Positions 1,262 through 64,000 of a DNA stretch of 64,000 nucleotides are shown piece after piece. Position 1 is the first letter of the stretch. Each line of letters starts with the position of its first letter. Both the position numbers and the translations under genes were made by a program. The notes under the pieces were generated by a model. It had not been told where the DNA came from, ran no database searches, and saw only the letters and a program-made list of their open reading frames with translations. The stretch lies in the IMG/VR virus record IMGVR_UViG_3300021387_001128, positions 1,602 to 65,601 of that record; one strand, given 5' to 3'. The stretch is from a virus. Its lineage: Duplodnaviria; Caudoviricetes.

Positions 1262-1377
1262 ATTACTTTTTAACTCTCCTTTCTTTTATTAATAAATAAC
1301 AAAAGAGAAAACAGTTCATAATAAGAGCGAGACGTAATCGAATGGAATATCTCTAAAGTCTTGCTCTGTTTAAAAAT

Positions 1378-28325: not shown

Positions 28326-29432
28326 TTACGAATAAGTTGGTTTATAGATAAATTTAAGTCTTGTTAACGCCATATCGGCGACCGGAGCGATATAAATTTC
28401 GTTGAGCTGGGCCACCATCGTGCGTTCCGTTCCGTTTCCTTCGACACGTTTCTTCAGCTCCAGGCTGTGTTTGTCTACAACCCTGGCAATCTGTATCCAT
28501 TCCCCGTTCAGGTAAATATGTTTGTCTGCGAAATATTTGGTAGCATCTGCCGCCGTTTCTTCTTCAAAGTCGTACAGCATATTGATTACATTAACCCTAT
28601 TGCTGTTGCTATACTGAACGTACAGATCCCGCACCGCAGGGAAAGCCGGCTCAAGAGACAGGAAGCCATAGTCATGATAAAGAAAGCAGATTTTTGTCTC
28701 GGCGCCGCCCTTCATTATGGTTCTGCCATTGATGGGATCGGTGTACAGGTATTGTCCTTCTTCGGTCGTTGCCGCCTTGGTCAGGCCGACAAACTTACAT
28801 TGTTCTCCGTTTGTTTTGTTGGTGATGTACACGCCGGACGGAGCGTCACCCGCAATCTCAATTCCTACAGCTGCAGGTTCGGTCCCGGGGTTCATCAGGA
28901 AAATGGTTGTGGGTTCAGTGATATCTTCTGAGCAGTCCGCTTCGGTTGGCAGGAGCATTGTCTCGCTCTCTACAACAGCAGTGTTACTCATGATATCTGC
29001 GTATTCTTTATCAGTCCTGGTGGAGTACCACACATCGCTTCGTGCGAACGGGTAATAAGCTTTGGCTTTAATAGTAATCAGACCGTTAAGATAATTTGTG
29101 AAGTCTTCTGTAACTTCGGTAATAACCACATGGTAGTAGCACCACGGCCGCCGTTGAAATACCAGCTTGCCAGATGATCCAACTTTGAATACAGAGTAGA
29201 TCTTTGCCATGATACCTCTGTCAATTCTCTCTTCTTCGAAGAAGCAGCGAAGGGTGAACTCCTTGGGCTGCCGTGTTGCTCCGTAAAAGTAACCGCCGTG
29301 ATGTCCGTCAAATGATTCTTCATGAATGTTGGATTGTGCCGGCCTGTAAGCGTAGGTGTCTTCCATCTCGGGAGCATAGTTTAGCCCGAGACTGGCAACG
29401 TCCAAACCATTGAAGGAAAAGCCGCCTTTCAT
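28326..29432 (-). CDS. Distal tail protein (Dit)
   Basis: Directly follows the tape measure gene; MKGGFSFNG...G..FYGAT..P.EF.L.CFF...GKLVF..RP..YY pattern. Confidence 0.75.
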   Translation of the reverse strand: MKGGFSFNGLDVASLGLNYAPEMEDTYAYRPAQSNIHEESFDGHHGGYFYGATRQPKEFTLRCFFEEERIDRGIMAKIYSVFKVGSSGKLVFQRRPWCYYHVVITEVTEDFTNYLNGLITIKAKAYYPFARSDVWYSTRTDKEYADIMSNTAVVESETMLLPTEADCSEDITEPTTIFLMNPGTEPAAVGIEIAGDAPSGVYITNKTNGEQCKFVGLTKAATTEEGQYLYTDPINGRTIMKGGAETKICFLYHDYGFLSLEPAFPAVRDLYVQYSNSNRVNVINMLYDFEEETAADATKYFADKHIYLNGEWIQIARVVDKHSLELKKRVEGNGTERTMVAQLNEIYIAPVADMALTRLKFIYKPTYS

Positions 29433-41600: not shown

Positions 41601-44600
41601 ATTGAGCCGCTCCTGAGAAGCATCTGTCCATACCTGCTTTACTTGGCCGTCTTCATATACGGAATCAAGAGATTTACCGACCCAGTTAAAAATATTACCA
41701 AACGATCTGCCGTATTCTTTTACGGCTTTTTGATCAGGCGTGTCTTCCCATGTGTCGCCTGTTTTACCATGCACGGAAACGACGTCGTAATTGGATTCAA
41801 GATCCAGAATCGCTCTCGCTGCGGCGGTGCTGATCTTTGGATTCCGCAGCAGAGACATAACATCCATCGTTCTGGATGCTCTGCCCATCATAGGAGTATT
41901 CTTTGCCTGCTCCATGATGTAAAGCGCGATATCCTCCGGATTCCGCATATCAAAAGGTTTATCAGCTCTTTTGATACCGCCTTTGCTTTTAACTGATTCT
42001 TTTAAAGCGGCCTGCTCTTCCGGAGTTCGTCCGGCCATTTTCCAGATTTTTGCATTGTCTTCGTTACTGATCTGGAAAACGCGGGCCATCATCTGGTTAA
42101 ATTCTGTGCTGCCTTTGCCGCTCAGCCCGAACAGACCGTTAATATCCCCGTCAAAATCTTCGCCCTGAAGGGCTTCAAGAATAGGGGAACCCGGCCTGAA
42201 GTACAGGGCTTTGGGGTCCATCCCAAGCTGCTCCGCCATCTTCTGGATTTTAGGAGCCATGCTCTTGTCGCGGGCCAGGTTGCTCGCGACGATATTGCCG
42301 CTTATCGTGGCGGGATGCCGCACAATACCAAGCTGATCAAACATGGAACCCAAAGAGATAACGTCGTTATTTCCGAGTTCCAACTCTTCCATCTCTTTGG
42401 GAATCTTGACACCGGCTTTGCGAAGCGCGTTGTTAACAACGTTAATCGGCGCAGGGGCTGCCATATTCCAGGAGTATACTCCGTGCGGAAGAAGCCTGTT
42501 CCCCTCAGAGTAGGATTCGACCATGCTGCTCAGATGTCCACGGATAATGTTCTGAGATTCTTCAGAAGTCAGATCAACCGTTTGATCACCGCCGAAAAGT
42601 TCTCTGCGAATATATTGATCATCCGTAGACAGACGAGTCATTTCATCCATGAAGATCTTGTTGAAATAAGCATCTACAACAGGATCGCTGAACCCAGCAT
42701 TCATCGGGCCGTTCACAAGCTGCTTGGAAAGCCAGCGGCCGGATGTGTTGGATTTGCCATACGTGGTTTTCAGAGAGATGCCGAAACGGGAAACCTGACG
42801 GGATCTCATATCGTTGATCTCTTCCGGAGTCATCCCGGCAAACATCTGATTAAAGTTTTTAATATTGTTTACGTCTTCAATGATATCTGTATCCCAGGGA
42901 ATAATCAGGTCTTCTCCGTTTATCCCTGCACCTTGAATACGAAAATCGCCGTAACGATTCATGATATCTCTGCGCTGCTGCTCAGTAATACCATCTCCGA
43001 TCTTCGCAATCTCTTCTGCGGTTCTTGCGCTCTCGACAATCTGATCTGGATACTGTGTTTTAAGCGCGTTTAAATCCATACGAACATAGGTTGCTTTGCC
43101 GCCATAAGAACGGCCTTGGCCGCCTTCGTTAAACAGCCGGGCGCTGCCCCAGTTCGCACCATCCATATCCTTCCCGAAGTTGCCCACAACAACTTTGACG
43201 TTGGGCGTTCCATAGTCGCGCATAATCTTGTCGCGCATGGACTGCCCAAGGTTCGGGTCTGCGAGCATCTGCTCCGTTGTCGCGTTACCAGAGAACCCAA
43301 ACGGGATACCCCACAGCGTACGGAGATTCTCGCCTTCGGTCGCAGGCAGGTTCTGGTTATACAAACTCTTCGCAAAAGGTTTGTACTCATTGAAGCTGCC
43401 CATTGATGCGCCGTTCGCAAGAAGCTTCAGGCCGGCTTTAAGATGTTCTTCGTTAACAGGCCCTTTTGAACCAACCGGCTTTGGTTCAAGTCCGAGTTCA
43501 TAGCGGCCAAGATCTTCAATCAGATCGTCGCGCATAAACTCTGCGTGTGTCTTTCCTGCTCGGGTAAAGCTGTAATGATGTCCGTTGGCAACGTATCCTT
43601 CTCTGATCCGTTTGGCAAGGTCAGCCTGATATCGTTGGCTGTCTTCGTCTTTCAGATAAGGATCGCTCCATTTTGAATCATACTTAAGATAAATCGCGTT
43701 GTCGTTAAACTCGTTTTGTCCAGCCCTGGATGAATGAGTCATCTGAGAAAGAATGTCGTTCTCCAGACTGCTGGCGAGCGTAACAGTGTGGAAGTCATCA
43801 GGGCTGAAACGCTTCCCGCCTGAAGTTGTGGGCTTCGTGATTCCCTGAGCAGTTCTCCATTTACCGGTTGCCCGGTCCAGATAAACCGGATTGGCGCCGT
43901 TAATCTGAGCGCCGCCTTCCATCATGTCAAGGGTGTATTCTGCATACGCGCTCGTTCTGCGCCTGGGCGCCATGGTGATCGGGCCGGTGTAAATACCTGT
44001 CCCATGGTTCGGGTTAAAAGGCTGAATCCTATCGTAATACCCAGGGTTAATCCAGCTGCCGTAGGCATCGTGTAGCGCGTGGGCTGTGCGTCGGCCGCTG
44101 TCGAAATCAATATTGTTGCCGATTTTACGTTCGACTTTTCGCCATTGAGAAGGATCATCCGGGTTTGTCATCCCGAATTTGCGTTCCCCCATGACGGCGG
44201 TAGAAGCATCACCGAATACAAATCCGGACATCGCGTTAATGTGGCCGCGTGTCAGATTGGGATTGCGATAGAGCCCCCCGTTGCTCTTTGCGTACAGCCC
44301 GGCGCGAACAGCCGCGTCCTGCGCGAGGCGGTCTGTCTCTACAATCTTTTGCAGTGCGGAGATCTCGTCCTGCGTAAGCGGAGTGTTGTCGCCGGCTAAA
44401 GCGCCGAGTATCCGTCTCTGGGCAGGCGCCGCAGTAGGGATCGTTTTAAAAGATTCCGGAAACAGTCCCCGGAATGTAATCGCTTTTTGCGGCATGGCGA
44501 CAGCAGATCCGCCGGTAACAGAAGCCCGCATATATTGCGGTACGTAAATCGGCAGCTGCGAAGTGAGATACTGCTCCATCCGCTGGCTCGAAAAAGCATT

Positions 44601-45149
44601 TGGATGTGCGCTCTGGCGGGGTCCCATAATGGATTTATACTGCGGACTCTCCATAAACCGCGCAACGATATCTCCATCGCTCAGCTTCCCGAGTCCGCCG
44701 GCCATAGACATCGCCGTCTGTTTCAACCCGTTTCCAAGCTGGGTAAATACGCCTTTCAGCCCTTCGTTGAAAGTCTCCGTAACAGTCTTCTCAACACTTG
44801 CTGTAAGATTCTTTGCCATTGCCGTCGAGCTAATAAGATCTTTAACACCGGCTTTGGCAACTTCAACCTGTCTTTTGTAGGATGCTCCCAGCGCATCTCG
44901 CTCCTGCTGAGTAGAAGCTTTTTCATACGCTCTGGATGTTGCGGCAATGTGATTAAGGTTATCAATCCATTGATCGAACCGGGTGTTCATCGCCTGGTTA
45001 TATCCAGGAATACTGGCTGTGTCTCCTCCTGGACGGAAGTCTTCGGACTTCTTTTTGATTTGTTCTATTTTGTCTTCAATGGATTCTGCTTTTTCCGTAA
45101 ATTGACCATCGTCCAGTTGGACTGTTAAAGTTAAAAGTTCATTGTCCAT
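29625..45149 (-). CDS. 5174-aa tape measure protein with an N-terminal YonO/QDE-1-like two-barrel RNA polymerase domain and an HhH motif
   Basis: TP901/PhageMin_Tail-like core at about aa 2000-2260, TM segments at about aa 2340-2395, long coiled coils, C-terminal YANGG..TGPAWVDG...PEAFL; located upstream of Dit. Polymerase motifs: DG (D663), R680..GGK685, RHP (R944), DFDGD (aa 998-1002, nt 42144-42158). Confidence 0.85.
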   Translation of the reverse strand: MDNELLTLTVQLDDGQFTEKAESIEDKIEQIKKKSEDFRPGGDTASIPGYNQAMNTRFDQWIDNLNHIAATSRAYEKASTQQERDALGASYKRQVEVAKAGVKDLISSTAMAKNLTASVEKTVTETFNEGLKGVFTQLGNGLKQTAMSMAGGLGKLSDGDIVARFMESPQYKSIMGPRQSAHPNAFSSQRMEQYLTSQLPIYVPQYMRASVTGGSAVAMPQKAITFRGLFPESFKTIPTAAPAQRRILGALAGDNTPLTQDEISALQKIVETDRLAQDAAVRAGLYAKSNGGLYRNPNLTRGHINAMSGFVFGDASTAVMGERKFGMTNPDDPSQWRKVERKIGNNIDFDSGRRTAHALHDAYGSWINPGYYDRIQPFNPNHGTGIYTGPITMAPRRRTSAYAEYTLDMMEGGAQINGANPVYLDRATGKWRTAQGITKPTTSGGKRFSPDDFHTVTLASSLENDILSQMTHSSRAGQNEFNDNAIYLKYDSKWSDPYLKDEDSQRYQADLAKRIREGYVANGHHYSFTRAGKTHAEFMRDDLIEDLGRYELGLEPKPVGSKGPVNEEHLKAGLKLLANGASMGSFNEYKPFAKSLYNQNLPATEGENLRTLWGIPFGFSGNATTEQMLADPNLGQSMRDKIMRDYGTPNVKVVVGNFGKDMDGANWGSARLFNEGGQGRSYGGKATYVRMDLNALKTQYPDQIVESARTAEEIAKIGDGITEQQRRDIMNRYGDFRIQGAGINGEDLIIPWDTDIIEDVNNIKNFNQMFAGMTPEEINDMRSRQVSRFGISLKTTYGKSNTSGRWLSKQLVNGPMNAGFSDPVVDAYFNKIFMDEMTRLSTDDQYIRRELFGGDQTVDLTSEESQNIIRGHLSSMVESYSEGNRLLPHGVYSWNMAAPAPINVVNNALRKAGVKIPKEMEELELGNNDVISLGSMFDQLGIVRHPATISGNIVASNLARDKSMAPKIQKMAEQLGMDPKALYFRPGSPILEALQGEDFDGDINGLFGLSGKGSTEFNQMMARVFQISNEDNAKIWKMAGRTPEEQAALKESVKSKGGIKRADKPFDMRNPEDIALYIMEQAKNTPMMGRASRTMDVMSLLRNPKISTAAARAILDLESNYDVVSVHGKTGDTWEDTPDQKAVKEYGRSFGNIFNWVGKSLDSVYEDGQVKQVWTDASQERLNKYNIDELAFPTMSSGSLTGQLLTRMYAQNFGLPAAGTNPDGSLKYDWDTIFDNLPAIKNPESATGRFTQAARDVKRNIATGRYLAPSQEEQDFVTQLQKAAEHEIDKQLIDEGITDINAYAYEYDRKAREAGIFAWRDYLTENGLRRENVEKDDQTKAMVSNVANAIGVPVDALFGSAPVMPPTQTPPVTQPPKQAQQPSATPARIAETQQKPKQTPKTPAEVKAGFPEPQEQVPFEVEDILENIAAKQPETTAREEAKEILRNVLGKGKSKDALIDSVMGLPETDLLSAINEGNLDPLLKIKGIGTKTAQKITQALAGSRFAQIQRGGSLEPNIANVNVPDMTAEIQKAEQQIEAQQEVAEEASKITEAQTEIIKTSAEQKAPQKSANPERDALEAQRKKLNGWISSVDFDPSWAVNELKKVIETDEQRPREELESFFGKAHGKTKEEYLASRRAELKDLEEYQKAWNDYMDKHPDERPVPLKTEQSTSEHAGMSDKGYQPTAPNQYAQTPVPPVPPTTPPGWTPNAPSDSMLQLAQAQFAQLIQPAQEFSNKLFGQILRSEQQLKDVPQSLIDFNRNNSFARSHERKLQNFKNSALWDTLAPDQKTSIDRLLDSETGLVAKAGRDFSDSSVVRAHNLLESITEQDSKINGTYDAQVEALDAWDKKIKELSEDQQQLFTLSKDQKYGKNLRDQFTDDAKAIGKDLDEIKKKRDSILGGMQKQNQTAFSKQLDSLESHLMPQNKLEQAAKQYSEQIAAIRENVTKKHDAGLMTDEDYNKDIERLDEFAKQATTTSLATKQLFTTVESSLGRVMQRFGRQIFNKAVQETKKFVKEFNASMVEIQAITMKTDDQMSDVRSRTLQTAVDLHTSVSNVSSTEAALYRQGLTDEEVQARTEDVIKFSQVAGIKVEAATKIITTALQNNLVDSSTEAMDALVALGDNAATTADEIGKAMQKSAASAKVAGVSYEELVSMATVMTSMTQLSGTQVGTAMNTIFSRIRKVTTEKFVRDQNGETTSLSDVETALGLAGIDLYTDESRANYRSATDILRDIAAGWQNMSDVQKSNITSAIAGTRMTNMFTTLMEGIGEDGGAKFEELLGLAGDSEGITESKYQVIAQGLAASFDTLRSSWDQLVAGLESNDVLTGSIDFISGLIQGITALNGVLGGSLSAILAVGAAVAAVTTIIATSKIPGIGAPLAIGAGVAVAAGVMGIGGLIGKGLSATTSAPKIREVSAQEQYDNFTEKNKDATDKYKSLIAKAETLGKKYDETNGNLSTSETDALTSALASLQAAFSGVDSSVSSAASGLDSWKSTVSAAKEEVQKLDEANKKSAKTLADIAIGDAEKEYAEKTKEINESTPTGLLFNGELDQRVASVATAKRGDKDALRTIASNFAGLEMAGMTEQEIVTSLFGTEGYDKYVTYMSGDSSSVGGYEERREGWLHQLAHDGNKPDGSSTAVALGNILGYQGLIDYKGNNISSNQETAQGFDSLVASLYQSNALEKVLSTQDWDELTRTYGTETNTFLSDFKAGFKNTKLSAGLPWRLAMGIARVVAGDVDVLTGYEDVRQEQLDKEAEGLLDTYLANNTDIRFSDTPGLSAAIKNRLLENHKGEHLNDWVRTNAAAEIQAEVESAENNPNYVEENTPSAVTEQSPQDIVTAAYKNIKPKDRKYDREYAGLYHLLTSKDIADITNEDVAFANALELINSGSDTELINIWESVNSGKGRYTQKDLTDYLFNQVYGSTPEELTATNMNTAAELGLQQARLTRMNDWQMLELQPNESDIQTIASALKIDPNQVRQNYATALNAYNQSYSTARSQFEQSIYDQIEKGYGLSDYFNEETGVYENVPKETIAKIQEQYSPLGFDIRASDKSGVSVNFVGGNVSAGAARTDFTPVYTNRELRDRAAEIAESGLNYNEAAERYKFWDDSLWNAVMDYSPELAQYMKMSPGQQASEEGQALKRAFELQFKVEGIADLEQAGKILEGTTRLIEDLSGDNTVKIADALREITTASMESGQQTAKLYSGTYSQVNEAAMSILGITDENVFLQNRDMYVQQARERQQLGRTAQASTYEQELVTSQTEEARQQIIQAAQTNGYRYENGTFVYDESLINLNRMRHDNLVENAREVANENDLQSIYRTANSFVPHLNRDYYTPEGYGIPVGDVFDTLLGADFNKLYENDQVWKDMVNLGADFDSFTGYISRMSNGQPGNVAQNYGWALQQAFGTADITSLTAQQLEEGWTNAGPQLQEVLSRTFDQMAGGDIFKSVATRQSGDLTAARDAYNNWLLEQGRFDSLESNMAYQQVQYDISNRTQNAATSLFSVLSQGQNFDNFGDFINSVGSSQVDNWKALLDSSPELANKMKDLGFSFEGDALDFTGEAESFKSALAALAAAVAEASNQITDVTTHGEDLRRAQEYLATGNRDYYDEFESALGDSDLAARARNDIEAQMAANQVQADAYEEAYKQNYGTNRAEANRILAEAEAAGFMATRQNGIVTGFTGGTITPIEDRDVYNPYELEYYNMRMANASNGFTGLTENQKFYGANLLLDQMRAGNLTGENGFYMNNSKAMIADYASMLPENYLNAAMAVEQAASGRYTMATIGDITQDSPDYEAVSKAVEEYYGSLQGAQKAQKDLDAEWESKSVKLSNKLGDHTDEAAEAMANFAKGGKDAIRQSAAWTKSIKTLQNNLTAVSKMRGKKPGQVGAKEGGLLAQFLGLDDWKDVQKLTQKQFDEALDAMEKDAQETFSQGHFKPMLEGALTDINQAISENKITLDQVVDVVTQVNESGDLSAFIALLESIESDYVAAAESMAGDIATIMIDIIKSIGAEHGQIDVEASVSSSSASANTPSGYSGGGGGGGGGGKSDAQKLIERQKHEIDRLKHNLTMIQTNQSHYDFMNDYDAYDASLQDEQVAIQNMQSAYAGHIQELQDQLAGTEYDSEDYWALTDALHAAEEAMADLQNSLDELRNKIIQQIEEQHQNEMTPEQHVSSLLEKRANRYQMLGQTENWISIQNQSRDQNDFMISVLKDQEKDWIKQMKNSTFGDESWIAARDNLLEIREQIADLQNDNIQKWIDVNNAMVTEVGKDLEHAQATAVSDANLYGTGAEMAQRANNGWVYRGMLNQQNTAYASQLDDLVKARDEMQSVLDQIEREEAGFKDEFGFGLQDHTDAWYDARDSVDAYEESILNVMNTMAENKAAWQQSVVADLADDYDRAAADADHIQKMYQTQAEIYKETGNEESYFNTLKNQRDMMSGGLQEQRQLLAGLEAYAKSGTVTDPTAWDQLRQKILSAREGIAQTELEMVKLNKQVNQASLEKLMESFNRVDEQFQHEIKLEQYEQTRYQNNGELTNYGYMLGREQETQIQRRNALQTNIGELQKLLADAKANNDEETYYKITQEIRKEEEALAQVNNQIEKNTKLLEQNAEKIRQVRMALENEIVKEIKDRIAKEENMLNAEINLQNQLIDVIRKNYQERWNLIKKDIQKQQEALNKEKALINERLNARKNAQNQEDKWEELAEYQRQLALIAMDPSRTKDVKELQRKIEDLQKELSWEIADQEVASAQEAIDDEIAALNDYVTAGEEDLNEFLADANNFQSEVNDMLSFSITAEFDEEAYARYIKFMQATSKSYQNSTEETRKKMENDWRKTWLSMQGLAETYWEDEDFIGAFSNRESFLDYMKQSDEYRDASDTGRESMLYKWGELYDNYTKSLINDATFDDSHATFEAVTDIENYVYSIDGLQREIVGDLSDIIALIHNYTGNNDTTWEQTQGWVSNSAENYLETVNSNVAELDEYGDLPSDKPPKPSSGSGSGSGGSGGGGAGGAADPKAHYSEAIAAFYENGKLVSYAGKGYGATIAAANSAAMADAKKKGKGTFFEAGSTVINKYANGGLVDYTGPAWVDGTKSQPEAFLDAYDTKAIQDLTDVLSYVYVSPGVLPTADVGVSNNTNVGDIYITINQAELKDDADYDEVAKRIGQAFTKQMSKNGLNLAGYAF

Positions 45150-45282
45150 ACCTTGTGCTCCCTTCTATATAAAAATTGACAATCTATTTAAAACAGCATA
45201 AAATGCCAGTATGTCCAATGTCATGAAACACTTCGCTTGATAATAACCTTGAGAGATTAACTAAACAGATCGGAGAATAAGA

Positions 45283-45852
45283 ATGGAAAGATTAAACGAA
45301 CTCAAAGCAAAGCTCGATAAACAAATCAAACAAAGCGAGTTATTTATTGATAACGCCAAAGCTTTAAAGCTGATAGCTGATTCTGCTCTGAGAGAAATGA
45401 CAGATATCAGACTTAATCTGATAGCAATCCAAAATGAAATTGAAGATATATCTGCTCCGAAAAAAGAAGAGCAGACAACAAAAACAAAAATACGCGTACC
45501 GCCAATTATATGTAAAAAATGTGAATGTTGTTTCTTTGTTCAAGAAATACTAGCCCCTGATGAACTCCCTGGCCCATATATACCAGGCAAACCATATTTT
45601 TGCAGTCGTTGTCATACGATCAGCAAAGAATACACAGAGTATATGATATTTGCGGAAGAACAAAAAGCAAAAGGCATCATTGTGAATTATTTTTACGACC
45701 GACCGCCAAAGAAAGAGAGTGACGAATCAAACACTAAATCGGAAGTAATTTGCAATAACAACACTGTGCAGCCACCGGAAATAATGAGATACATGCAGGA
45801 AAAACCATTGCCGCCGGAGAACAATAAATGGGACGATGATTTACCATTTTAA
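45283..45852 (+). CDS. Hypothetical Cys-rich protein ending in an SSB-like DDDLPF tail
   Basis: 189 aa, GGAG RBS; CKKCECC...CSRC; C-terminal WDDDLPF; opposite strand to the tail operon. Confidence 0.6.
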   Translation: MERLNELKAKLDKQIKQSELFIDNAKALKLIADSALREMTDIRLNLIAIQNEIEDISAPKKEEQTTKTKIRVPPIICKKCECCFFVQEILAPDELPGPYIPGKPYFCSRCHTISKEYTEYMIFAEEQKAKGIIVNYFYDRPPKKESDESNTKSEVICNNNTVQPPEIMRYMQEKPLPPENNKWDDDLPF

Positions 45853-45869
45853 GAAGGGAGCAAAACAAT

Positions 45870-46079
45870 ATGAAGAAGCCTGAAAAGACACCTTTTGATC
45901 TCGGCTTTCCGAACGACGGCCCGGAGTACGACCCGGAGATGGATAACGAAACCATCGAACTGCCGGAGGATGTAGATGCCAAACTTCTCGAACTGACAAA
46001 GCCGCCGAAGAAGAAGAGCATCTACGGAGACGAGGATCAGAACGATCTGATGGATATGATCGACAAACATACAGATTGA
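45870..46079 (+). CDS. Small acidic hypothetical protein
   Basis: 69 aa, AAGGGAG RBS. Confidence 0.55.
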   Translation: MKKPEKTPFDLGFPNDGPEYDPEMDNETIELPEDVDAKLLELTKPPKKKSIYGDEDQNDLMDMIDKHTD

Positions 46080-46136
46080 CATTCTCCCTGTTCTGTGCCA
46101 CAATATCTTGTATTTTAAGGGCAGGGGAGTGATTAA

Positions 46137-46382
46137 ATGAGAGGATTAGAATGCCCGATCTGCCATACGGATCAACACCAGCCGCGCTACGAGCAGTACG
46201 GACTCTTCGTCTGTCAGTCCTGCGGCACAGTGCTGGGGTATCTCTGTAAGGGCTGCGACCGTGTTTACCTTGAGAATCATTTGATCCTTCATGGTGACGC
46301 TCAGGTCTGCAAGTTCTGCGGCACGCCGCAGTGGGGTTACACCGAATACGCACGAAATAAAAAAAGGGGAGAGATTGCATGA
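46137..46382 (+). CDS. Small zinc-ribbon protein
   Basis: Four CxxC pairs (CPIC, CQSC, CKGC, CKFC); GGGGAGTG RBS. Confidence 0.65.
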   Translation: MRGLECPICHTDQHQPRYEQYGLFVCQSCGTVLGYLCKGCDRVYLENHLILHGDAQVCKFCGTPQWGYTEYARNKKRGEIA

Positions 46383-46394
46383 TCTCTCCCCTTT
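46363..46394. terminator. Bidirectional terminator between convergent genes
   Basis: AAAGGGGAGAGAT-6-ATCTCTCCCCTTT perfect inverted repeat. Confidence 0.7.
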
Positions 46395-46400
46395 ATCTCT

Positions 46401-46784
46401 TTATTCGGCTGGTTGAGCAGCAACATCCGATTCGCGAATGCTTGCAGCACCGTGGTTCGCCTTCATAAACTCCGTAACCGCCGCGATATAATCCGTCTCT
46501 TCCTGCATCATCGCAGGATCAACTGTAGCGGTAATCACTTCGTGCAGCCAGTTGATCACTTCGTTCTTCTTGCTGTCTCTGGCATTGCGGCGTTCGACTT
46601 CCAATTTAAGGATGTCTTCTACGTCGTACCAGCCGCTGAGATAAGAATCTTCGAGATCGTCCAGCGCGCCAAGCTCTTCACGAAACAGCATGTCCTGCCA
46701 CTCCGGTTCCAGATACCAGGTCCCGTTGTCCAGTTGCTGAATTGTCAGCTCCTTGGCTTTGTAAATAAAAGTAGCGTATGTCAT
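46401..46784 (-). CDS. Hypothetical protein
   Basis: 127 aa, AAGGAG RBS. Confidence 0.6.
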   Translation of the reverse strand: MTYATFIYKAKELTIQQLDNGTWYLEPEWQDMLFREELGALDDLEDSYLSGWYDVEDILKLEVERRNARDSKKNEVINWLHEVITATVDPAMMQEETDYIAAVTEFMKANHGAASIRESDVAAQPAE

Positions 46785-46797
46785 AATCGTTTCTCCT

Positions 46798-46956
46798 TCA
46801 ATACAGCTTCACAACTGGTCCTTCCGTATATCCATGGTCTTCTGTGTAGTAAATTTCGTCGCGGACGACAACCAGTGTGATTTCTCCTTCATCTGTTGCG
46901 ACCGGATAATCTTGTGGAAGTTCTTCCAGCCGGTCAATCACTTCTTTTACTGTCAT
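46798..46956 (-). CDS. 52-aa hypothetical protein (not in ORF track)
   Basis: MTVKEVIDRLEELPQDYPVATDEGEITLVVVRDEIYYTEDHGYTEGPVVKLY; GGTGA RBS; fills the gap between neighbours exactly. Confidence 0.6.
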   Translation of the reverse strand: MTVKEVIDRLEELPQDYPVATDEGEITLVVVRDEIYYTEDHGYTEGPVVKLY

Positions 46957-46962
46957 ACGGAA

Positions 46963-47406
46963 TCACCGTCTTTTGCGCCGGTTGAAGAAAACTTTTTTGT
47001 CTTCCATTATCTGCGTCTCTTTCGCCCCTTTTTCCTGATATACAGGCTCGACGCTGGGCACGGCTTCCTGAACGGGAGTTTCCGGAACAACGCCAAGAAC
47101 ATGAACAGGTTCTTCAACCTTTACTTGAACGGTTTCCGGAAAAGGGTTTGCTTCCTTCAAGGCTGCAAGGTCTTCGATATTCTTTGCCAGCCGGCGTCCG
47201 GATACGCGGTTGTTAATGCCGCCGCTGGTCCACAAATGATAATTGCGCATCGCCTGGAAAAAGATTTCATGAGCGATTGTATCTTCTGGAAAAGGGTTTT
47301 CCTTACACTGGCATACAATATCCGTGCCAATTGAAAACAGATTTTCGGTCCTACCGAATGAATAATTGTTCATTAACTGTTCATACAAATCTCTTAAATT
47401 CTCCAT
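46963..47406 (-). CDS. Hypothetical protein
   Basis: AAAGGAG RBS before MENLRD. Confidence 0.6.
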   Translation of the reverse strand: MENLRDLYEQLMNNYSFGRTENLFSIGTDIVCQCKENPFPEDTIAHEIFFQAMRNYHLWTSGGINNRVSGRRLAKNIEDLAALKEANPFPETVQVKVEEPVHVLGVVPETPVQEAVPSVEPVYQEKGAKETQIMEDKKVFFNRRKRR

Positions 47407-47425
47407 GGTGTAAACTCCTTTTTGT

Positions 47426-47815
47426 TTATTTGAGCATGTCTTCAAACCAGCTCATGTCTCCCAGAACCTTCTCGGCGGTCGCTTTCTGATTCTTTGTATT
47501 CTCAATCACTGTCATGGCTCCTGGGAGGCTCATCATTGCAAACGCGCTGCTCTTCGTGTTCTGTTTATAAAGCGGGTTGGCTTGTGCAATGATCTTGTTG
47601 ATGGCTTCGCCGGACTTCTTGTCGAATACGGTTCTTCCATACATGTTCGAGAGCGATTCGAAGTTAAGTTTCTTCCCAAGCGCGGCAAGCACATCCTGAA
47701 AAAACACATAGCTCATATTGTTGATTTTTTCTTCGTCAACTTCGCCCAAGTGAGCGGCAACTACGGCTACGGCCTCATCCAGACTCAGCGCTTCACTTGG
47801 GCTTCCCTGTTTTTT
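47426..47815 (-). CDS. Tail assembly chaperone gpT-like segment, reached by -1 frameshift
   Basis: The -1 frame is open from A AAA AAC (47809-47815): KKQGSPSEALSLDEAVAVVAAHLGEVDEEKINNMSY...; no RBS for the TTG start. Confidence 0.7.
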   Translation of the reverse strand, partial: KKQGSPSEALSLDEAVAVVAAHLGEVDEEKINNMSYVFFQDVLAALGKKLNFESLSNMYGRTVFDKKSGEAINKIIAQANPLYKQNTKSSAFAMMSLPGAMTVIENTKNQKATAEKVLGDMSWFEDMLK

Positions 47816-52847: not shown

Positions 52848-53849
52848 TTAGTTAAGGAAGTGCGCGCCGATGGTGGGATTCTTCCCAACAACGAACGCAG
52901 CACCGAACCAGGTGTAGAGCAGCACTTCGTAAGTGCGGCTGTCGATGTTCTGGGAGGGCATCTGATTGACACCACCCTCGTTAACCACCTTCAGGTTACG
53001 GGCATCCTTGGACGCAGCGCCGGGGATAATATAAATCCAGTTCGGATTAAGGATGGGCGTCACGCCATCTTCCTTATAGCCGTTCTCGAACGCGGTCACG
53101 GCACAGCCGTTGTAATTGCCGAGGAAGCCGTTGCGGGCATGCTCGTCCAGCATGTTGCCGCTGAAAGCCATCGTAGGCACGCTGTTGGCGGCCATGCCGG
53201 TAAAGGGAGCCAGCTGACTCACAGCACCCAGATCGCCAACCAGGTTCACAGGACCAAGCCGACGGAAATGCAGGATCTGAGCATCCAGAGTGGCCTGATT
53301 CAGGCCGCCGGTGCTGTTCGCATACCAGGGAGAACCGAAGGGAGCAATCGCAGCCTGCAGAACAGACTCGATAACTTCCATCTTCTTCTCGGTGATGGCA
53401 TCGTTCGCTTCACGGATCAGGTCAGCAATGTTGATCTTGCCCTTGTGCAGGTCGATGATGTTCATCGCCGGACGAGCAGACACTTCCTTGGTGGGAACCA
53501 GGATTTGCTTGTCGGTGATCATGCTGCGGGCAGTCGTGCCACCCTTCGCCTGGATGTAAGCCTTGATGCTGCCCAGACGGACATTGAACAGAGCCTTGTC
53601 GCCATATCCAATATCCTTGGTGTCAGCAATCGTGCCCAGGAAATCGAGAGCATGCTTCTGCAGCTCTTCGACAGTAAAGGCAATCGCCTGACCAATCTGG
53701 TAGGCGTTCTGAGGATTCAGATCCTGGGCCAGTTCCATGATAATCTGATTCGCTTCTTCGATCTTGTCGGAGTCGACACGCTCGTTGCGATGCTGGGCCG
53801 CGAGAACCTGAATCAGCTTCGCGTCACGGGTAATTTTGATATCGCTCAT
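52848..53849 (-). CDS. Major capsid protein (SPbeta YonB-like position)
   Basis: 333 aa, strong codon bias, GGAGGTG RBS, followed by a terminator; downstream of scaffold and decoration genes. Confidence 0.8.
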   Translation of the reverse strand: MSDIKITRDAKLIQVLAAQHRNERVDSDKIEEANQIIMELAQDLNPQNAYQIGQAIAFTVEELQKHALDFLGTIADTKDIGYGDKALFNVRLGSIKAYIQAKGGTTARSMITDKQILVPTKEVSARPAMNIIDLHKGKINIADLIREANDAITEKKMEVIESVLQAAIAPFGSPWYANSTGGLNQATLDAQILHFRRLGPVNLVGDLGAVSQLAPFTGMAANSVPTMAFSGNMLDEHARNGFLGNYNGCAVTAFENGYKEDGVTPILNPNWIYIIPGAASKDARNLKVVNEGGVNQMPSQNIDSRTYEVLLYTWFGAAFVVGKNPTIGAHFLN

Positions 53850-55718: not shown

Positions 55719-55793
55719 TGGCTCTGCGAGCTGGATTCGAACCAGCAGCCGTCCGGTTAACAGCCGGATGCTCTACCGTTGAGCTACCGCAGA
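55719..55793 (-). tRNA. trnN: tRNA-Asn (GUU)
   Basis: TCTGCGG TA GCTC AACGGTA GAGC A TCCGG CTGTTAA CCGGA CGGCT GCTGG TTCGAAT CCAGC TCGCAGA G CCA: full cloverleaf, GTT anticodon, G discriminator, encoded CCA. Confidence 0.95.
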
Positions 55794-56124: not shown

Positions 56125-57714
56125 TTAACCTGTATCAGAAGCCTTTTGTACAGTTGATGTTTGCATCGATCCGTCGGGATTGGAAGGTTTGGGCATCTTG
56201 CCCCGCTCCGCCGCGTCCGGATCGGATGTACGATCGCTGTCGTCCAATGTAGGCCGACCGGCGCCGTCAGATCCTTCGTTCGTTGTTTCGGCCGCCTGAT
56301 CCCTTGGAGCCAGCAGTTCGTCGATCTCTTCGCGTTCTTCTTTGCGGCGCTCCGCTTCTTTGTCAATGTTGTAGCCATAAGCATCCAGCATCGTCCGGGT
56401 GGAAACCACGCCGTTAGACCACAATTCCTTGCAGGCTTCTCTCAGAGCCTTCTTGCCGGTCATATCCAGCGGTACGAATTTGAACTCCGGTACTTCTTTC
56501 AGGTTGTAGGTTCCCGGAATGATCTCGGTCAGCCGCTCGTTAATGCGGTTCATCATCTCGCAGAACTTGTCCCGGGCCGCATTGATCCGAGCTTCAGCAG
56601 TCTGCATGGATGTCTGTGCGGAAGCGAAGGTGGAACCGTCCTGACTCACGCCGGTAACAACGATTCCGCTGACACCGCCGGCCGCAAGAATATCGTTGTT
56701 GACATCTCGGTATTTATCCCATTGGAACAGATCGTCTGTGTCCGCCTGGATAAAGCTGGCGTTGGCGAGATGATTGGTAACGACCAGCGGGAAGTTGGAC
56801 ATACCCGCCTTGAAGATACGGCTGATCTGCTGGAGTTGGTTGGCATCCGGCAGCATGTCTTGTCCCTTGGTCGGGTCGCCGTACTTAGCATGCACAAAGC
56901 CGCGAATCGCAAGATTCAAGGTAGCCTTCTCGTAAGTTCCGATCAGTTCCTTTTTCGCCAGCGGTTCGAGACAACTCGCGATAAAGGGAATCGCATATCT
57001 GTGCCAGCTCTCCTTGTTGCCCTGCAGAACAAACGTGTTAGCTGGGTTGAGCTGGGCATACTGCTTGCCTTTGTCCAATGCTTCTTTTACTTCTTCAGGA
57101 TATCCTTCGAAGTAAGCTTCAAGGTTGTTCTCCTTGATCCAGCCTTCCTGCACGGTGTAGTTCTTGGCTCGCCATTCGTTGTAGATCGATTGACAGTCGA
57201 AGTCTACAATCGGCATGCCGTTTAAGGAGACGCTGCCGATAACGCATTTGTGAATAGGCAATGTAATAAGCTGACCTTTCAGCAGGTAGCATACAACGTT
57301 TGAATATTTCCAGTATTCAAGAGCGATCCCGTAGATCCTCTCCTTCAGCCGCATCCGTTTATATTGATCTTCGAACAGCTTGATCGTTTTTTTGTTCTTG
57401 CCTGAGAGCACCCAGTCAGAACAGGTGGTAAACGGAACAAACACATGATGCACAATCCCTTTAACAATCGGATCGGCATCGGTGTAGTAGTCGGACAATT
57501 GATAAAGCCGGACAATGTTGCCCTGTTTGTCCCGCAGGATCGCACTGTAGTCGTATCCTGTCAGGTTGCCGCTGAAGGTAATATTGGAGTTGGTGTAGCT
57601 TTGGAATACGTCTTCTTCGTTGTCTTTTGTTGCGCCTACGACTTCTCTCTTGGGAGGGCGAGACGCTTCTGGCGCGGGCGTTCGTACAGCCCGCAGGAAA
57701 TCAAAAAAACCCAA
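56125..57714 (-). CDS. Portal protein (SPbeta YonE-like)
   Basis: 529 aa directly after TerL; TTG start after GGAAGG; YYTDADPIVKGI...; charged C-terminal tail. Confidence 0.85.
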   Translation of the reverse strand: MGFFDFLRAVRTPAPEASRPPKREVVGATKDNEEDVFQSYTNSNITFSGNLTGYDYSAILRDKQGNIVRLYQLSDYYTDADPIVKGIVHHVFVPFTTCSDWVLSGKNKKTIKLFEDQYKRMRLKERIYGIALEYWKYSNVVCYLLKGQLITLPIHKCVIGSVSLNGMPIVDFDCQSIYNEWRAKNYTVQEGWIKENNLEAYFEGYPEEVKEALDKGKQYAQLNPANTFVLQGNKESWHRYAIPFIASCLEPLAKKELIGTYEKATLNLAIRGFVHAKYGDPTKGQDMLPDANQLQQISRIFKAGMSNFPLVVTNHLANASFIQADTDDLFQWDKYRDVNNDILAAGGVSGIVVTGVSQDGSTFASAQTSMQTAEARINAARDKFCEMMNRINERLTEIIPGTYNLKEVPEFKFVPLDMTGKKALREACKELWSNGVVSTRTMLDAYGYNIDKEAERRKEEREEIDELLAPRDQAAETTNEGSDGAGRPTLDDSDRTSDPDAAERGKMPKPSNPDGSMQTSTVQKASDTG

Positions 57715-57895: not shown

Positions 57896-59545
57896 TTAGA
57901 ACCCGACCGCGAATCCCAAACTGGGAGTACCGCGTCGGAATTTTTTTACGTTCTCTTTTTCGAGTTCACTGATAAAGTCGTTTGCCATCGCAAGCGACGA
58001 GTATCTATCCTTGTGCTGATTGTTATGTTGCACATCATAGGTTTTGTTTCCAGACGAGCTGGTCTTCTCTACGATGTTACCCATTTCAAACTGCAAAGCG
58101 TCTGTCTCCAAAAAGATCGCCATCTCTTCTTTAGACATCCGCTTCGACTCGTCTTCGATCTCCTGTTGTCTGGCCCGCATCGTTCTCTCCTGAATCGGGA
58201 GCTCGATCGTCTTCTTCTCCAGCGCAACACGGAGATTGGTATAGATCCGCTGGTTCAGCGTGTTGACGGCCCGGAAGGGATGCAGCACCTGTTTGGCATC
58301 CGGATTGGTAAGAGGCTCGTCGTCTACAACCAGTGGCGGGTATTCTTTCCCGGTGGCCGCATCAATCCACTCCTGATCGAAGAAGCGGTTGAAGCTGTCG
58401 CCGATACCACGGGCATCGTATACGATCTTCTCTGTGTTTGGAAACCGAACATGGTAATATCTGCGAACTTCGTCCGCAAGATAATCCAAAGGCTTCCCGT
58501 TGTAACTCCGGATATTAACCAGCTTTCGATTGTATGTACCGTCTGTCCGTTCGGTGTATTTAACAACCGTAAGAATGGAGTTATCCGATCCTTTGGCTGT
58601 GGATGTAGCGATGTCCAGACAGATAACATATTTGGATTTGGAATTCTTCGGCTGCTCCATCTCAATCTTGTCGAGATTGCGGCAGGTCGATGTAAGATCG
58701 TAGGGAAGTGCGGAGTTATTGGTTGCTCCTAAGAACTTGGAGCCGTACTCCATCTCGAAGGTAGATGCAGGCATCCGCTCTTTTTCCCGCATAAAGAAGT
58801 CCATATCCGTAATGCCGTTGGCAACAGCCGCACGATAATCCAGCGTGCAGCAGAAGACTTCTCTGTCTCCCTTTGCCATCCGGCTCAGGTTCTTCATAAA
58901 CGAAGTGTAGTATTGGTTGCTCTTCTCGCAGGCGGATGTGATTGTAAACGTCTTGGAAGGGAAGTCTTTAAAGCCGTAGCTGAAGCAGATATCCCTTGTC
59001 GTGTTTCGAACAGGGGACACAACCGCTTCCAGTTCTTCCTGATCTACATCCAGCGCTTCGTCGACAATAACAACCTTGGCCCGCTGGCCGCGAGCAGATT
59101 CGATAGATGTCGAGAGCATCATGCTCCCATTTTTTAATGTGCAGCTTGAACTGTCTTTGGAAACCTGCACGAGAGACTTCGCGTTGCTTGCGAGAATCTC
59201 GTTGGCAATGTTCTGGTTCTGCTCCGCCATTAGCTTCAGCTTACCTAATGCAAGGGTAGCCTGTTTACCGGTGGCGGAAACAACAAGCACAATAGCGCCT
59301 GGGTACAGGCAGCAGATCGCAAAGCCGCCAAGAGAAGCCAACCAGGTTTTACCGAATCCACGGGAGCATGTATCGTTGCTGTCAACGCAGTTACCGAGCT
59401 GCCGCATCATCACATGTTGGTCTCTCGTAAGTTTGATAGGAGCAAAAGCATCTTCCACGAAGATATCTAAGTGGGAACGGTAGAACATTAACTGTTCTTC
59501 TATAACGTCCCAGTTTGTAATAACCCCTTGTCTCGCGACGGGCAT
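57896..59545 (-). CDS. terL: Terminase large subunit
   Basis: Walker A SRGFGKT, Walker B VIVDEA, coupling motif TITSA, RNase H-like CLDIA and KDRYSSLAMA. Confidence 0.92.
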   Translation of the reverse strand: MPVARQGVITNWDVIEEQLMFYRSHLDIFVEDAFAPIKLTRDQHVMMRQLGNCVDSNDTCSRGFGKTWLASLGGFAICCLYPGAIVLVVSATGKQATLALGKLKLMAEQNQNIANEILASNAKSLVQVSKDSSSCTLKNGSMMLSTSIESARGQRAKVVIVDEALDVDQEELEAVVSPVRNTTRDICFSYGFKDFPSKTFTITSACEKSNQYYTSFMKNLSRMAKGDREVFCCTLDYRAAVANGITDMDFFMREKERMPASTFEMEYGSKFLGATNNSALPYDLTSTCRNLDKIEMEQPKNSKSKYVICLDIATSTAKGSDNSILTVVKYTERTDGTYNRKLVNIRSYNGKPLDYLADEVRRYYHVRFPNTEKIVYDARGIGDSFNRFFDQEWIDAATGKEYPPLVVDDEPLTNPDAKQVLHPFRAVNTLNQRIYTNLRVALEKKTIELPIQERTMRARQQEIEDESKRMSKEEMAIFLETDALQFEMGNIVEKTSSSGNKTYDVQHNNQHKDRYSSLAMANDFISELEKENVKKFRRGTPSLGFAVGF

Positions 59546-60852: not shown

Positions 60853-61278
60853 GTAATCTCTCCTTCTTAACACGAACAATAAAAAATGAATCCAGCAGAT
60901 TGTTCGGTAAATGATTTTAAGGATCTGCTGCTCCTTGCTTTGAAGAGACTCGTTGCAAACGGTCTCTCCCCTTTACATTGATTTTCGAATGACCCGCGAG
61001 TTTTATTCGTGATTTTTATAACAATACTGAAAAACGTTATATAAAATGAGCCGTGAGATTTGCGTGCGGAAGCGACGAGACCTTAAAATACCCCCTGTTT
61101 TTAGTGGGTATGGGTAAAACTTTTCAGCGTAAAATTTACTTGTGGGTTTCCTATATTTTACAGAGAACCAACAAGGAGAATAGCTATACATTTTTGTTGA
61201 GTAGATATAGAGAATGTATAACTGTCTGTGATTCACGCGGTTACTGCGGAAAATAAAAATAGCCCCATACTTTCCCTA

Positions 61279-61420
61279 TAGAGATATAGGAGAAGTATAG
61301 GGTTGAGTTTATGTGAGTGAGGATGGGTGAGGTGGCATGAGGAGGAGAGGATGTAAGGAGGTGGGTTTGAGTTGGAAGAGAGGAGAGGAATTTGAATTTG
61401 AAGGAGGACTTGGAAGAGAA
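61279..61420. other. Purine-rich, almost C-free tract at the strand-switch point
   Basis: About 140 nt on the plus strand with only 2 C residues; GAGGA/GGAGAGG-type short repeats. Confidence 0.7.
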
Positions 61421-61477
61421 CAAAACCCATTTATGAAAAAAATCAAAAAAACATTTTAGCGTAAATTCACGATATTA

Positions 61478-61718
61478 AACAGGACGCCCACAACACACAT
61501 GGACGTCCTGTTTAGTACCCTGAAAGGAGGTGCAGCCAATAAAAGATTGGGAACGTGCCGTGATAGCGGTGCTCGGACTCATTCTAACTTTGGTTCTGCA
61601 GTGTCTGCTGGCTTTTGCGGTCAAGTAGCCTGCGGGCAGGGGCGCATAACCGGCGCCCCTGTGCACCTCTCTTACGTTTTGATGATACCAAATCGCTTTG
61701 AGTATTGTCAATAAAACG
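61478..61718 (+). ncRNA. Candidate multi-branched structured RNA
   Basis: AACAGGACG/CGTCCTGTT, GAGGTGCA(61527)/TGCACCTC(61662) enclosing CAGGGGCGC/GCGCCCCTG, and CGTTTT-GATGATAC/GTATTGTC-AAAACG; flanked by ATTTATGAAAAA direct repeats. Confidence 0.4.
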
Positions 61719-61778
61719 ATTTATGAAAAATAAACAGACAACAGTGCTGTTTATTAATAAATTTTAAGGAGGTATCCC

Positions 61779-61931
61779 ATGTACCAGAGCCCTTATTACG
61801 TAGGAGAGATTGAGTTTTCCTACATCAGCGACGCTGCCCAGTATTGGGCAGACTGTCCGAATGCCGTCGTTACTGATTCAAACGGTGACGAAGTGCCATC
61901 TGAGGACCTTGAATCGATCCTCGGGTGGTAG
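61779..61931 (+). CDS. 50-aa acidic hypothetical protein (not in ORF track)
   Basis: AAGGAGGT RBS; MYQSPYYVGEIEFSYISDAAQYWADCPNAVVTDSNGDEVPSEDLESILGW. Confidence 0.7.
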   Translation: MYQSPYYVGEIEFSYISDAAQYWADCPNAVVTDSNGDEVPSEDLESILGW

Positions 61932-62201: not shown

Positions 62202-62235
62202 AGCTGTCGCGGAACAAGCTAGGAGGTTGTTTGTT

Positions 62236-62442
62236 ATGGCTAAGAAGGTAAAGAAGTTCGATATCCTCGCAAATACTCATTGGTTCGCTGGTTGGAGGTA
62301 TTGCGTCAGCACCTCGACCAGTTTAATTAGCACAAGCTGGATCGAGCACTTCTTTGTAACCAAAGAAGCAGCTTACTCTTTTGCTGCTGAAGCTGAGCGT
62401 CAGGGATATGTATACCTGATCGCAACACCTGAAACCTACTAA
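62236..62442 (+). CDS. 68-aa hypothetical protein
   Basis: AGGAGG RBS before ATG 62236 (MAKKVKKFD...). Confidence 0.7.
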   Translation: MAKKVKKFDILANTHWFAGWRYCVSTSTSLISTSWIEHFFVTKEAAYSFAAEAERQGYVYLIATPETY

Positions 62443-62675
62443 AGTTTGAGGACAGGAGATCCACTGGGTCTCCTGAGTTCAGGCTTTGGTCTGCGGGTTA
62501 CAGATGGACGTTAAGCATCTGAGGGCATGCCGCTGCCCACATCTCGTATGGCACTTACCCAGCGAGAAGCGGTCTTTAATGCTCTACGGAGCAAGGTGTC
62601 AGTAAACACCGCACCGCAATCCCCAGCGGCAACATCGCAGGGAGTCCTGCTAATAAAAACATTGGAGGTAGCCCC

Positions 62676-64000
62676 ATGAAGAATATTATCCGTATTGATC
62701 TCGTCCGTAACACTACTGAGGAAATTGGTATCTTTGATAGCGAGATTACTCGCTGGTTCGACGAGCAGGGTCGTGACGTCGCTTACGACCTGATTAAAGT
62801 TAAGGCCGAAGTTCCCTCCGGCCGTAACGAGTCCGAAGAGATGGACCGTGTAAACTGTGAGCTGACCCGCTACGCCAATCGCGGGTATCAGCTCCCCGTC
62901 CCACACAAACTTGCTGGTGTCACTTATGTTCCGCTGTTTGCGGCGGCGTCTGATGTTCGCAAAGCAACCTCTACTTGGATTAACAAGGAGGTTGCTGAAA
63001 AGTTCTGGAAGTGGGCCATGTGCGGTCTGACTCTTCAGGACGTTAGTGGCAAAATCGCCATTAACAAGTATATGGCCTATATCGGGCTGCTTGCTTCTGC
63101 GAGCAAGCGGTTCGAAGAAGTCTTCGGCCGCACTATCGACATCCGCCGTGTAGCGGTTGTTAAGGACCGCTACGTCAAAGTCATCGGCAACGTTGACTTT
63201 GTTGAAGGTGTCGAAGTCGAGCATAACACCGAGAGGGAACTTGAGATCAACGCGTTCGATGGGTTTGCCATCATTCGCGAAGAGCTCACCGATGGTGAGT
63301 CCTGCTCTCTCCGTCCAGGTCCCTGGGGCAAAGCGTTTGCCCAGGCCACGAACTTCACTGGGCTTCCGGCCAAGTTTGTTGACTTCTGGGGTCGCGAAGT
63401 CCGTACCCAGGACGTCGACATCATTATGTTCGAAAGCTGCTTCAAAGCTGCGAAGCTCTATAAGAGCTGGGAACAGTATTGTGAAGCGTTCGAGCAGCTT
63501 GGACACCACATCTGTGCTTGTGTTCGTGAACACGAGCCCAAGCTGAAGGGCATGCCCTATCAGCAGACCCAGACCTTGTTGGGCGACGATGGAGATGTTG
63601 CTTTGTTCGCAGAGCATAGTGCCGCCACCGTCTCCAAGTATACCGAAATCAAGAACGCCGTTGGTCTGCTGTCTAAATGGCAGAAGGCCGCTGCGAAGGT
63701 CTACAATCCGCTTCTTAAAGAAGCTCATACTGCCCGGTCCATCCAGGATAAGTATGCTTCTAAGAAGCAGGACATGCTCGGTGGTCGTATTCCCGAGCTG
63801 GGTTACAACGCCTTCATCGCTCCGGATATGGTGGCTGTGATTCAGGGAATCTTCGGCTACGAGATCACCGGTGTTCTCAAAGCCGGAGAATGTCATTGCT
63901 CCAACTGCGAAATGGGTGAAGTCGACATCACCCGTAATCCGCACCTGGATAACGCCCACGTTGTGCTCAACAACGTGGAACGTATGCCTTTTGTTTCCAA
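62676..64000 (+). CDS. Free-standing YonO/QDE-1-like two-barrel RNA polymerase (partial, runs off right end; not in ORF track)
   Basis: GGAGGT RBS, ATG 62676, open to the window end (441 codons). Motifs KYMAYIGLLAS, NAFDGFAII (D195), R213-PGPWGK219, DITRNPHL (R420). The DxDGD loop is expected just past the end. Confidence 0.8.
   Translation, partial: MKNIIRIDLVRNTTEEIGIFDSEITRWFDEQGRDVAYDLIKVKAEVPSGRNESEEMDRVNCELTRYANRGYQLPVPHKLAGVTYVPLFAAASDVRKATSTWINKEVAEKFWKWAMCGLTLQDVSGKIAINKYMAYIGLLASASKRFEEVFGRTIDIRRVAVVKDRYVKVIGNVDFVEGVEVEHNTERELEINAFDGFAIIREELTDGESCSLRPGPWGKAFAQATNFTGLPAKFVDFWGREVRTQDVDIIMFESCFKAAKLYKSWEQYCEAFEQLGHHICACVREHEPKLKGMPYQQTQTLLGDDGDVALFAEHSAATVSKYTEIKNAVGLLSKWQKAAAKVYNPLLKEAHTARSIQDKYASKKQDMLGGRIPELGYNAFIAPDMVAVIQGIFGYEITGVLKAGECHCSNCEMGEVDITRNPHLDNAHVVLNNVERMPFVS

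Follow-up and report, generated by a model that had tools for sequence, protein, structure and literature searches.

No relatives of cellular RNA polymerase are simpler than the single-chain two-barrel RNA polymerases (RNAPs), and few of these have been studied: YonO of phage SPbeta, QDE-1 and the RDRs, gp66 of crAss-like phages, and gp64 and gp96 of phage P23-45. Being small and self-contained, such enzymes would lend themselves to biochemical and structural studies. Herein, we analyzed an open reading frame (ORF) at positions 62676–63998 (plus strand) of a 64,000-nt stretch of viral DNA, referred to as the window (IMG/VR record IMGVR_UViG_3300021387_001128, positions 1,602 to 65,601). The ORF opens the gene of a putative two-barrel RNAP that we call RNAP-A. 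An earlier note on this DNA had read it as a free-standing YonO-like RNAP acting in a two-polymerase cascade with a polymerase domain fused to the tape-measure protein.

YonO of SPbeta is a single-chain two-barrel DNA-dependent RNAP; the 37 late genes that it reads form one operon and serve structure and lysis (Forrest et al. 2017, PMC5467207). Abolition of RNA synthesis by mutation of the Asp triad has been shown for YonO only (PMC5467207). In P23-45, the N-terminus of the 5,002-residue tape measure gp96 is a virion RNAP, which reads the pre-early genes, including the gene of the non-virion RNAP gp64; gp64 reads the early and some middle genes, and the host RNAP reads the late genes (Chaban et al. 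2024, PMC10770324). The P23-45 structures considered here were PDB 8H2M/8H2N and 8F72. Like P23-45, the lineage of the window has a tape measure of about 5,000 residues with an N-terminal DFDGD polymerase, together with a free-standing two-barrel RNAP gene divergent from the structural genes. Coliphage N4 is transcribed in three stages, by a virion RNAP, then RNAPII, and then the host RNAP, and its enzymes are T7-like and of an unrelated fold. As in N4, an injected giant polymerase-bearing protein would, in our proposal, start a staged programme with a second phage polymerase. However, the last stage in N4 belongs to the host RNAP, whereas all three candidates in the present lineage are two-barrel paralogues. 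To our knowledge, full independence of the host RNAP among phages has so far been found only in phiKZ-like jumbo phages, which use multisubunit enzymes.

The ORF begins with ATG, preceded at 7 nt by a ribosome-binding site (GGAGG, 62664–62668, plus strand), and runs for 441 codons without a stop to the window end; its start residues, MK.I, are shared by RNAP-A homologues. Since the window stops where its single 65,601-bp viral contig does, and the CheckV completeness of that contig is 47%, the polymerase gene was evidently cut by the assembly, and the window holds the N-terminal 441 codons of a protein of approximately 810 residues. Closure of the contig into a circle was considered and rejected, as there was no terminal repeat and a stop codon occurred 3 codons past the end-to-start junction. 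An antisense frame of 482 residues (62511–63959, minus strand) that covers nearly the whole ORF was taken as a shadow frame, all homology being on the plus strand.

The open frame contains the motif series described in the earlier note. D195-G196, R213, and K219 (63258–63332, plus strand) belong to the beta-like barrel and were aligned with their YonO counterparts by BLASTP, and R420-N-P-H (63933–63944, plus strand) opens the beta′-like barrel; of the two barrels, the window covers the beta-like one, a double-psi barrel, and the first strand of the beta′-like one. D195, G196, R213, K219, R420, P422, and H423 were all invariant in the 52 sequences of the ORF family. In the closest relatives, which are 93%, 88%, and 85% identical, the protein continues for 20 residues past the last residues of the ORF and then reads DYDGD, a motif invariant in the family and seen in P0160, P0134, P0135, and others. 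The distance from R420 to the start of DYDGD is 42 codons, which would put the triad of the window gene about 63 nt beyond base 64000, essentially as predicted in the earlier note, where a DxDGD motif was expected 45–60 codons after R420 and less than 150 nt beyond the window.

Searches at the sequence level placed the ORF next to YonO. In a tblastn search of 50,697 phage records, the ORF matched SPbeta yonO over residues 84–430 (E = 1e-21, 28% identity), and further matches came from Psychrobacillus phage Perkons, Clostridium phage D-1873, and Enterocloster phages. The ORF also matched the profile phrog_8308, of unknown function (E = 1.8e-47), and the coverage of its positions 91–521 of 847 indicated a full length near 800 residues. 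The family is large: more than 180 clusters (at 90% identity) of approximately 800-residue metagenome proteins were collected. The full-length relative with 93% identity matched YonO in BLASTP over 618 residues (E = 1e-38), with DYDGD opposite DNDGD, the hidden Markov model (HMM) of the family scored 230.8 bits on YonO, and hhalign aligned the two with a probability of 100% (E = 1.3e-44). Homology to YonO extends over both barrels, and the two share the motifs D-G, R, K, R-x-P-H, and D-x-D-G-D. The truncated ORF itself gave no match in a Pfam search. Among full-length relatives, P0002 reached 25.8 bits against the Pfam family RdRP (PF05183; cut-off 23.8) and P0003 fell just short with 22.9 bits; the matched region, residues 456–575, lies around the Asp triad, past the window end. 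In the PDB, sequence and profile searches returned nothing relevant, whether started from the ORF, a full-length relative, the tape-measure N-terminus, or the profile of the family. From this agreement, the ORF is almost certainly a YonO-clade RNAP, and its product is predicted to be the start of a single-chain two-barrel DNA-dependent RNAP.

The relation to YonO is that of a sister and not of an orthologue. In a quick maximum-likelihood tree (IQ-TREE), the ORF lay inside the RNAP-A clade, separated by a long branch (SH-aLRT 95) from a group formed by SPbeta YonO, Perkons, D-1873, and P0220/P0221, two free-standing homologues from large relatives of the window; the ORF did not group with YonO to the exclusion of the paralogues. 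Identity to YonO was 26–28% for RNAP-A versus 34% for P0220. The clades also differ in length (approximately 810 residues for RNAP-A versus 839–942) and at the C-terminus, which is an acidic tail in the RNAP-A relatives (that of the ORF itself is beyond the window), whereas YonO and P0220/P0221 end in Cys-rich regions with CxxC clusters. Like YonO, RNAP-A is a single polypeptide of a siphophage, but its gene heads the early block, whereas yonO precedes the late operon. On these alignments, RNAP-A is an uncharacterised sister family of SPbeta YonO (PHROG 8308).

Two observations on the distribution of homologues can be added. The first annotated gene of Enterocloster phage CB473P3 (L008, a 107-kb isolate; 842–2347, plus strand) encodes a 501-residue homologue that contains only the N-terminal part of a YonO-like enzyme, and may be a split or truncated polymerase. 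In bacterial genomes, the single match was a 9.7-kb contig binned in a metagenome-assembled genome of Paludibacteraceae, which is weak host evidence; the strong GGAGG sites and the Firmicutes-phage homologues suggest a host other than Paludibacteraceae.

The predicted structure agreed with the sequence assignment. The 93%-identical relative was modelled with AlphaFold2 from an alignment of 52 sequences; the model had a mean confidence (pLDDT) of 89.9 and a pTM of 0.84 and showed the overall fold of the solved single-chain two-barrel polymerases. Only two-barrel polymerases were at the top of a Foldseek search of the PDB: RDR2 (6e-17), QDE-1 (1e-13), P23-45 gp64 (6e-8), and phi14:2 gp66 (2e-3). 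VIA-align gave the same order, with Z scores of 26.6 for RDR2 (621 residues aligned, root-mean-square deviation 3.9), 25.1 for QDE-1, and 16.2 for gp64, followed by gp66 (12.3), gp96 (11.0), and the cellular beta′ subunits (approximately 7). Together with the tblastn match to yonO and the family HMM, this fold bears out the reading of the ORF as a YonO-like RNAP.

The structural ranking raised the question of whether RNAP-A is a transcriptase at all. The best matches, RDR2 and QDE-1 (Z 25–27 over approximately 620–640 residues), are RNA-dependent polymerases, the relative P0002 passes the threshold of Pfam RdRP, and the homologue in Perkons carries the annotation RNA-dependent RNA polymerase. 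RNAP-A might then be an RNA-dependent RNA polymerase or a primer-making enzyme, serving replication priming or counter-defence. Its identity to RDR2 and QDE-1 is 11–14%, and those are cellular RNA-silencing polymerases acting on RNA or single-stranded DNA, rather than transcription enzymes of phages. However, among the enzymes whose activity has been tested, YonO is the nearest in sequence, and it is a processive DNA-dependent RNAP; in addition, the relatives of the window contain a separate primase/helicase. We consider a non-transcriptase function very improbable.

The tape-measure-fused polymerase named in the earlier note was also found. The tape-measure protein of the window, P0004 (5,174 residues; 29625–45149, minus strand), has a PF10145 tape-measure core downstream of a two-barrel RNAP domain that occupies residues 181–1290 at its N-terminus (41280–44609, minus strand). 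Its motif series is D663-G664, R680, K685, R944-H-P, and D998-F-D-G-D, with DFDGD encoded at 42144–42158 (minus strand). The invariant columns in 42 tape-measure-fused domains included G664, R680, K685, R944, P946, and D998/D1000/D1002. Because the motif positions were invariant in these 42 domains and in the 52 relatives of the ORF, they are not chance occurrences. The AlphaFold2 model of residues 181–1290 (pLDDT 85.7, pTM 0.84) showed a two-barrel fold, and Foldseek matched it to QDE-1 (E = 6e-9), RDR2, P74-26 gp62 (4e-4), and P23-45 gp64 (1e-3). The domain was present in 62 clusters (at 50% identity), nearly all of them proteins of 3,700–6,900 residues, and was not found in any deposited phage record searched. 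The polymerase end of the tape-measure gene is 17.5 kb from the free-standing ORF. An identical tape-measure protein is on record in a 129,113-bp contig.

As the earlier note had remarked, the two polymerases of the window have little sequence in common beyond the motifs. BLASTP of the ORF against the tape-measure protein was nonsignificant (best E = 1.6), and the link was made through profiles: with 37 fused domains, hhalign aligned residues 453–960 with 14–436 of the ORF family (probability 75.6%, E = 2.4e-5), and residues 509–1006 of the fused domain aligned with 124–543 of YonO (probability 83.8%, E = 7.9e-6). The alignment of the fused domain with the ORF family depends on depth, as the probability was 6.7% with 11 sequences and 75.6% with 37.

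The arrangement of the two genes is that of P23-45, and the RNAP-A model resembles gp64 (Z 16.2). The cascade of the earlier note is therefore not new in kind, since a scheme of tape-measure-fused and free-standing RNAPs has been published for P23-45 (PMC10770324). The proteins, however, are different. Neither HMM searches nor hhalign showed significant profile similarity of the ORF family or the fused-domain family to gp96 (N-terminal 1,200–1,300 residues) or gp64. Unlike the flat, clampless gp96, to which Foldseek gave no match (E = 0.57), the fused domain here matched QDE-1/RDR2 (E = 6e-9). As judged from these profiles, the system of the window is the P23-45 architecture in an unrelated sequence family, with both polymerase families on the YonO side.

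A further difference from P23-45 emerged when seven related contigs of 105–151 kb were examined for their polymerase complement. The complete relative G002 (150,780 bp, with end repeats, 100% complete) contained the fused domain, RNAP-A, and a second free-standing homologue of approximately 940 residues, and so did a 108-kb relative. Both free-standing polymerase genes were present in each of five more contigs of 105–133 kb. In three relatives, the fused domain escaped single-sequence searches, but an unfiltered HMM search detected it in giant frames, with the triads DFDGD at 975, DFDGD at 1138, and DYDAD at 945. All three polymerases thus occurred in 7/7 large relatives, with the gene of the third in the replication module each time, and a cascade would then have three tiers rather than the two of the earlier note. 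The approximately 940-residue homologues (P0220/P0221) matched YonO with 34% identity over 879 residues (E = 9e-130), contained the motif LQFD(V/N)DGD, and had the Cys-rich C-terminus of YonO; by these sequence criteria, the third polymerase is a true YonO orthologue. This third enzyme is what is new compared with the published P23-45 scheme of two phage polymerases.

Two of the genes deviate in detail. The DYDAD triad, at residue 945 of the giant frame of G009 (33544–47604, minus strand), keeps the three Asp residues and has lost a Gly. The YonO orthologue of G005, a 132,669-bp IMG/VR contig (19474–24028, plus strand), is in three pieces with TAA stops, separated by gaps of approximately 1.4 kb and 0.3 kb, which may reflect introns, homing-endonuclease insertions, or decay.

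The analysis establishes the identity, fold, conserved catalytic positions, and gene order of the enzymes, as well as their co-occurrence in relatives; their activity, their carriage in the virion, the gene class read by each, and any independence of the host RNAP are inferred. A staged, self-supplied transcription programme is likely, and its tiers may be assigned as follows. The tape-measure-fused polymerase would enter with the DNA and make the first transcripts, including the RNAP-A message. RNAP-A, the putative non-virion enzyme, whose gene precedes all other large genes in the plus-strand early block and points away from the 60-kb morphogenesis block, would read the early and middle genes, including, in the complete relatives, a replication module that contains the gene of the YonO orthologue. 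Transcription of the late morphogenesis block would fall to the YonO orthologue, in keeping with the role of YonO in SPbeta. Because SPbeta YonO is a late-gene enzyme, its orthologue is, by analogy, a likelier late-transcription candidate than RNAP-A, which is probably an early or middle enzyme; the proposal of the earlier note that RNAP-A transcribes the late region of approximately 60 kb is not supported as written. Taken as a whole, the identity of RNAP-A together with a three-tier programme is the best explanation and, in our estimate, slightly better than an even bet, and the assignment of roles to the three tiers falls a little short of even.

The gene layout of G002 bears on this assignment. 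Among the large genes of the plus-strand block, RNAP-A comes first, and it is followed by approximately 17 kb of small ORFs with six tRNA genes. The replication module comes next; it opens with a reverse transcriptase (RT)-like gene and the YonO orthologue and also encodes a Sak-like annealing protein, a primase/helicase, and an exonuclease. Several points weigh against the three-tier reading. The YonO orthologue is not beside the late operon, unlike yonO in SPbeta, and the late operon starts beside the RNAP-A gene, which fits RNAP-A equally well as the late enzyme. The third polymerase is known from relatives only, the window contig being 47% complete, and the catalytic Asp triad of the window gene itself falls past the contig end. 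No conserved promoter-like word was found within 500 nt 5′ of RNAP-A at 11 loci.

The two tiers of the earlier note are a live rival: the tape-measure enzyme would read the plus-strand early block and RNAP-A the 60-kb late block, with the YonO orthologue serving the middle/replication genes or another class. In favour of this arrangement, one intergenic region holds the starts of both the late operon and the RNAP-A gene, and the YonO orthologue of the relatives is approximately 25 kb away among the replication genes and not by the late operon. However, the only characterised member, YonO, is a late enzyme, and its orthologue is the third polymerase and not RNAP-A. We regard this division of labour as less likely, and favour the three tiers with the YonO orthologue as the late enzyme.

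Infection might instead be started by the host RNAP, which would also read the RNAP-A gene; the tape-measure domain would then be no injected transcriptase for that gene, and RNAP-A would be a conventional middle or late polymerase following a T7-like or SPbeta logic. The P23-45 relatives G18 and phiFa have a non-virion RNAP without a fused virion RNAP (PMC10770324), and YonO-like genes occur in SPbeta, Perkons, and the Enterocloster phages, whereas the search of deposited phage records turned up no fused domain. Against such an arrangement stands the retention of the Asp triad and R-x-P by the fused domain in 7/7 large contigs and in 42 diverged proteins, which points to a selected catalytic role, and we consider it quite improbable.

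The strongest form of the three-tier reading is that these uncultured siphophages, with genomes of approximately 105–150 kb and very long tails, run the whole infection on three paralogous two-barrel RNAPs, independent of the host RNAP from the first gene to the last. P23-45 has two phage polymerases instead of three, and its late genes use the host RNAP (PMC10770324), so the precedent does not imply full independence. We hold this form to be possible but doubtful. If the three enzymes act in sequence, a single virus would show one fold branching into an injected, an early, and a late transcriptase, and the strategy of P23-45 would be widespread and would have arisen in an unrelated family. 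In any case, the sister family of YonO to which the ORF points is large and uncharacterised, and every large contig examined also has a YonO orthologue and a tape-measure-fused polymerase.

The surroundings of the ORF in the window are in line with the divergent orientation given in the earlier note. From 60879 downwards, all sizeable genes are encoded by the minus strand; together they make up the morphogenesis block of a siphophage, including the large terminase TerL (57896–59545), the portal (56125–57714), a capsid-like protein (52848–53849), Dit (28326–29432), and large tail proteins. A noncoding gap of approximately 900 nt (60880–61778) separates this block from the plus-strand early block and should hold divergent promoters. 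Between the gap and the polymerase gene are two small plus-strand ORFs (61779–61931 and 62227–62442) and a structured RNA, which probably share a transcript with the polymerase gene.

A scan for sigma-70 promoters found fewer sites than in shuffled sequences, and the direct repeats detected in the window were of the kind expected by chance. The words shared upstream of RNAP-A were only the ribosome-binding site and two weak 9-mers (8/11 loci versus 6 in shuffles). A candidate type II hammerhead ribozyme (RF02276; 62142–62209, plus strand) lies approximately 470 nt 5′ of the polymerase start. In a targeted scan it matched the full model with 37.1 bits (E = 4e-5), against a cut-off of 37, and it was not listed by the gathering scan of the whole window. 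In the scanned loci around the RNAP-A gene of relatives, no hammerhead reached the threshold. If active, the ribozyme would cleave the early transcript just 5′ of ORF 62227–62442 and the polymerase gene.

The polymerase gene was also considered as a marker of the genome terminus, since it lies less than 1 kb from the record start in some phage records and one contig. This was dropped, as a complete relative with end repeats has the gene at 41 kb. In G002, the six tRNA genes are dispersed between small early ORFs 3′ of RNAP-A (L042, G002 47.6–54.8 kb, plus strand). The RT-like gene (G002 64986–66122, plus strand, equal to L043:6987–8123) is directly 5′ of the YonO orthologue and matched phrog_2825 (E = 1.6e-38) and phrog_1423, annotated "Reverse transcriptase"; it could be a diversity-generating RT, and the copy of the window phage would fall in the unsequenced half. 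Within the window, a strongly purine-rich stretch with runs of GGAGG and GAGGA (61290–61420, plus strand) lies in the divergent intergenic gap, and a tRNA gene (55722–55793, minus strand; 70.2 bits) is located in the morphogenesis block between the portal and the next ORF.

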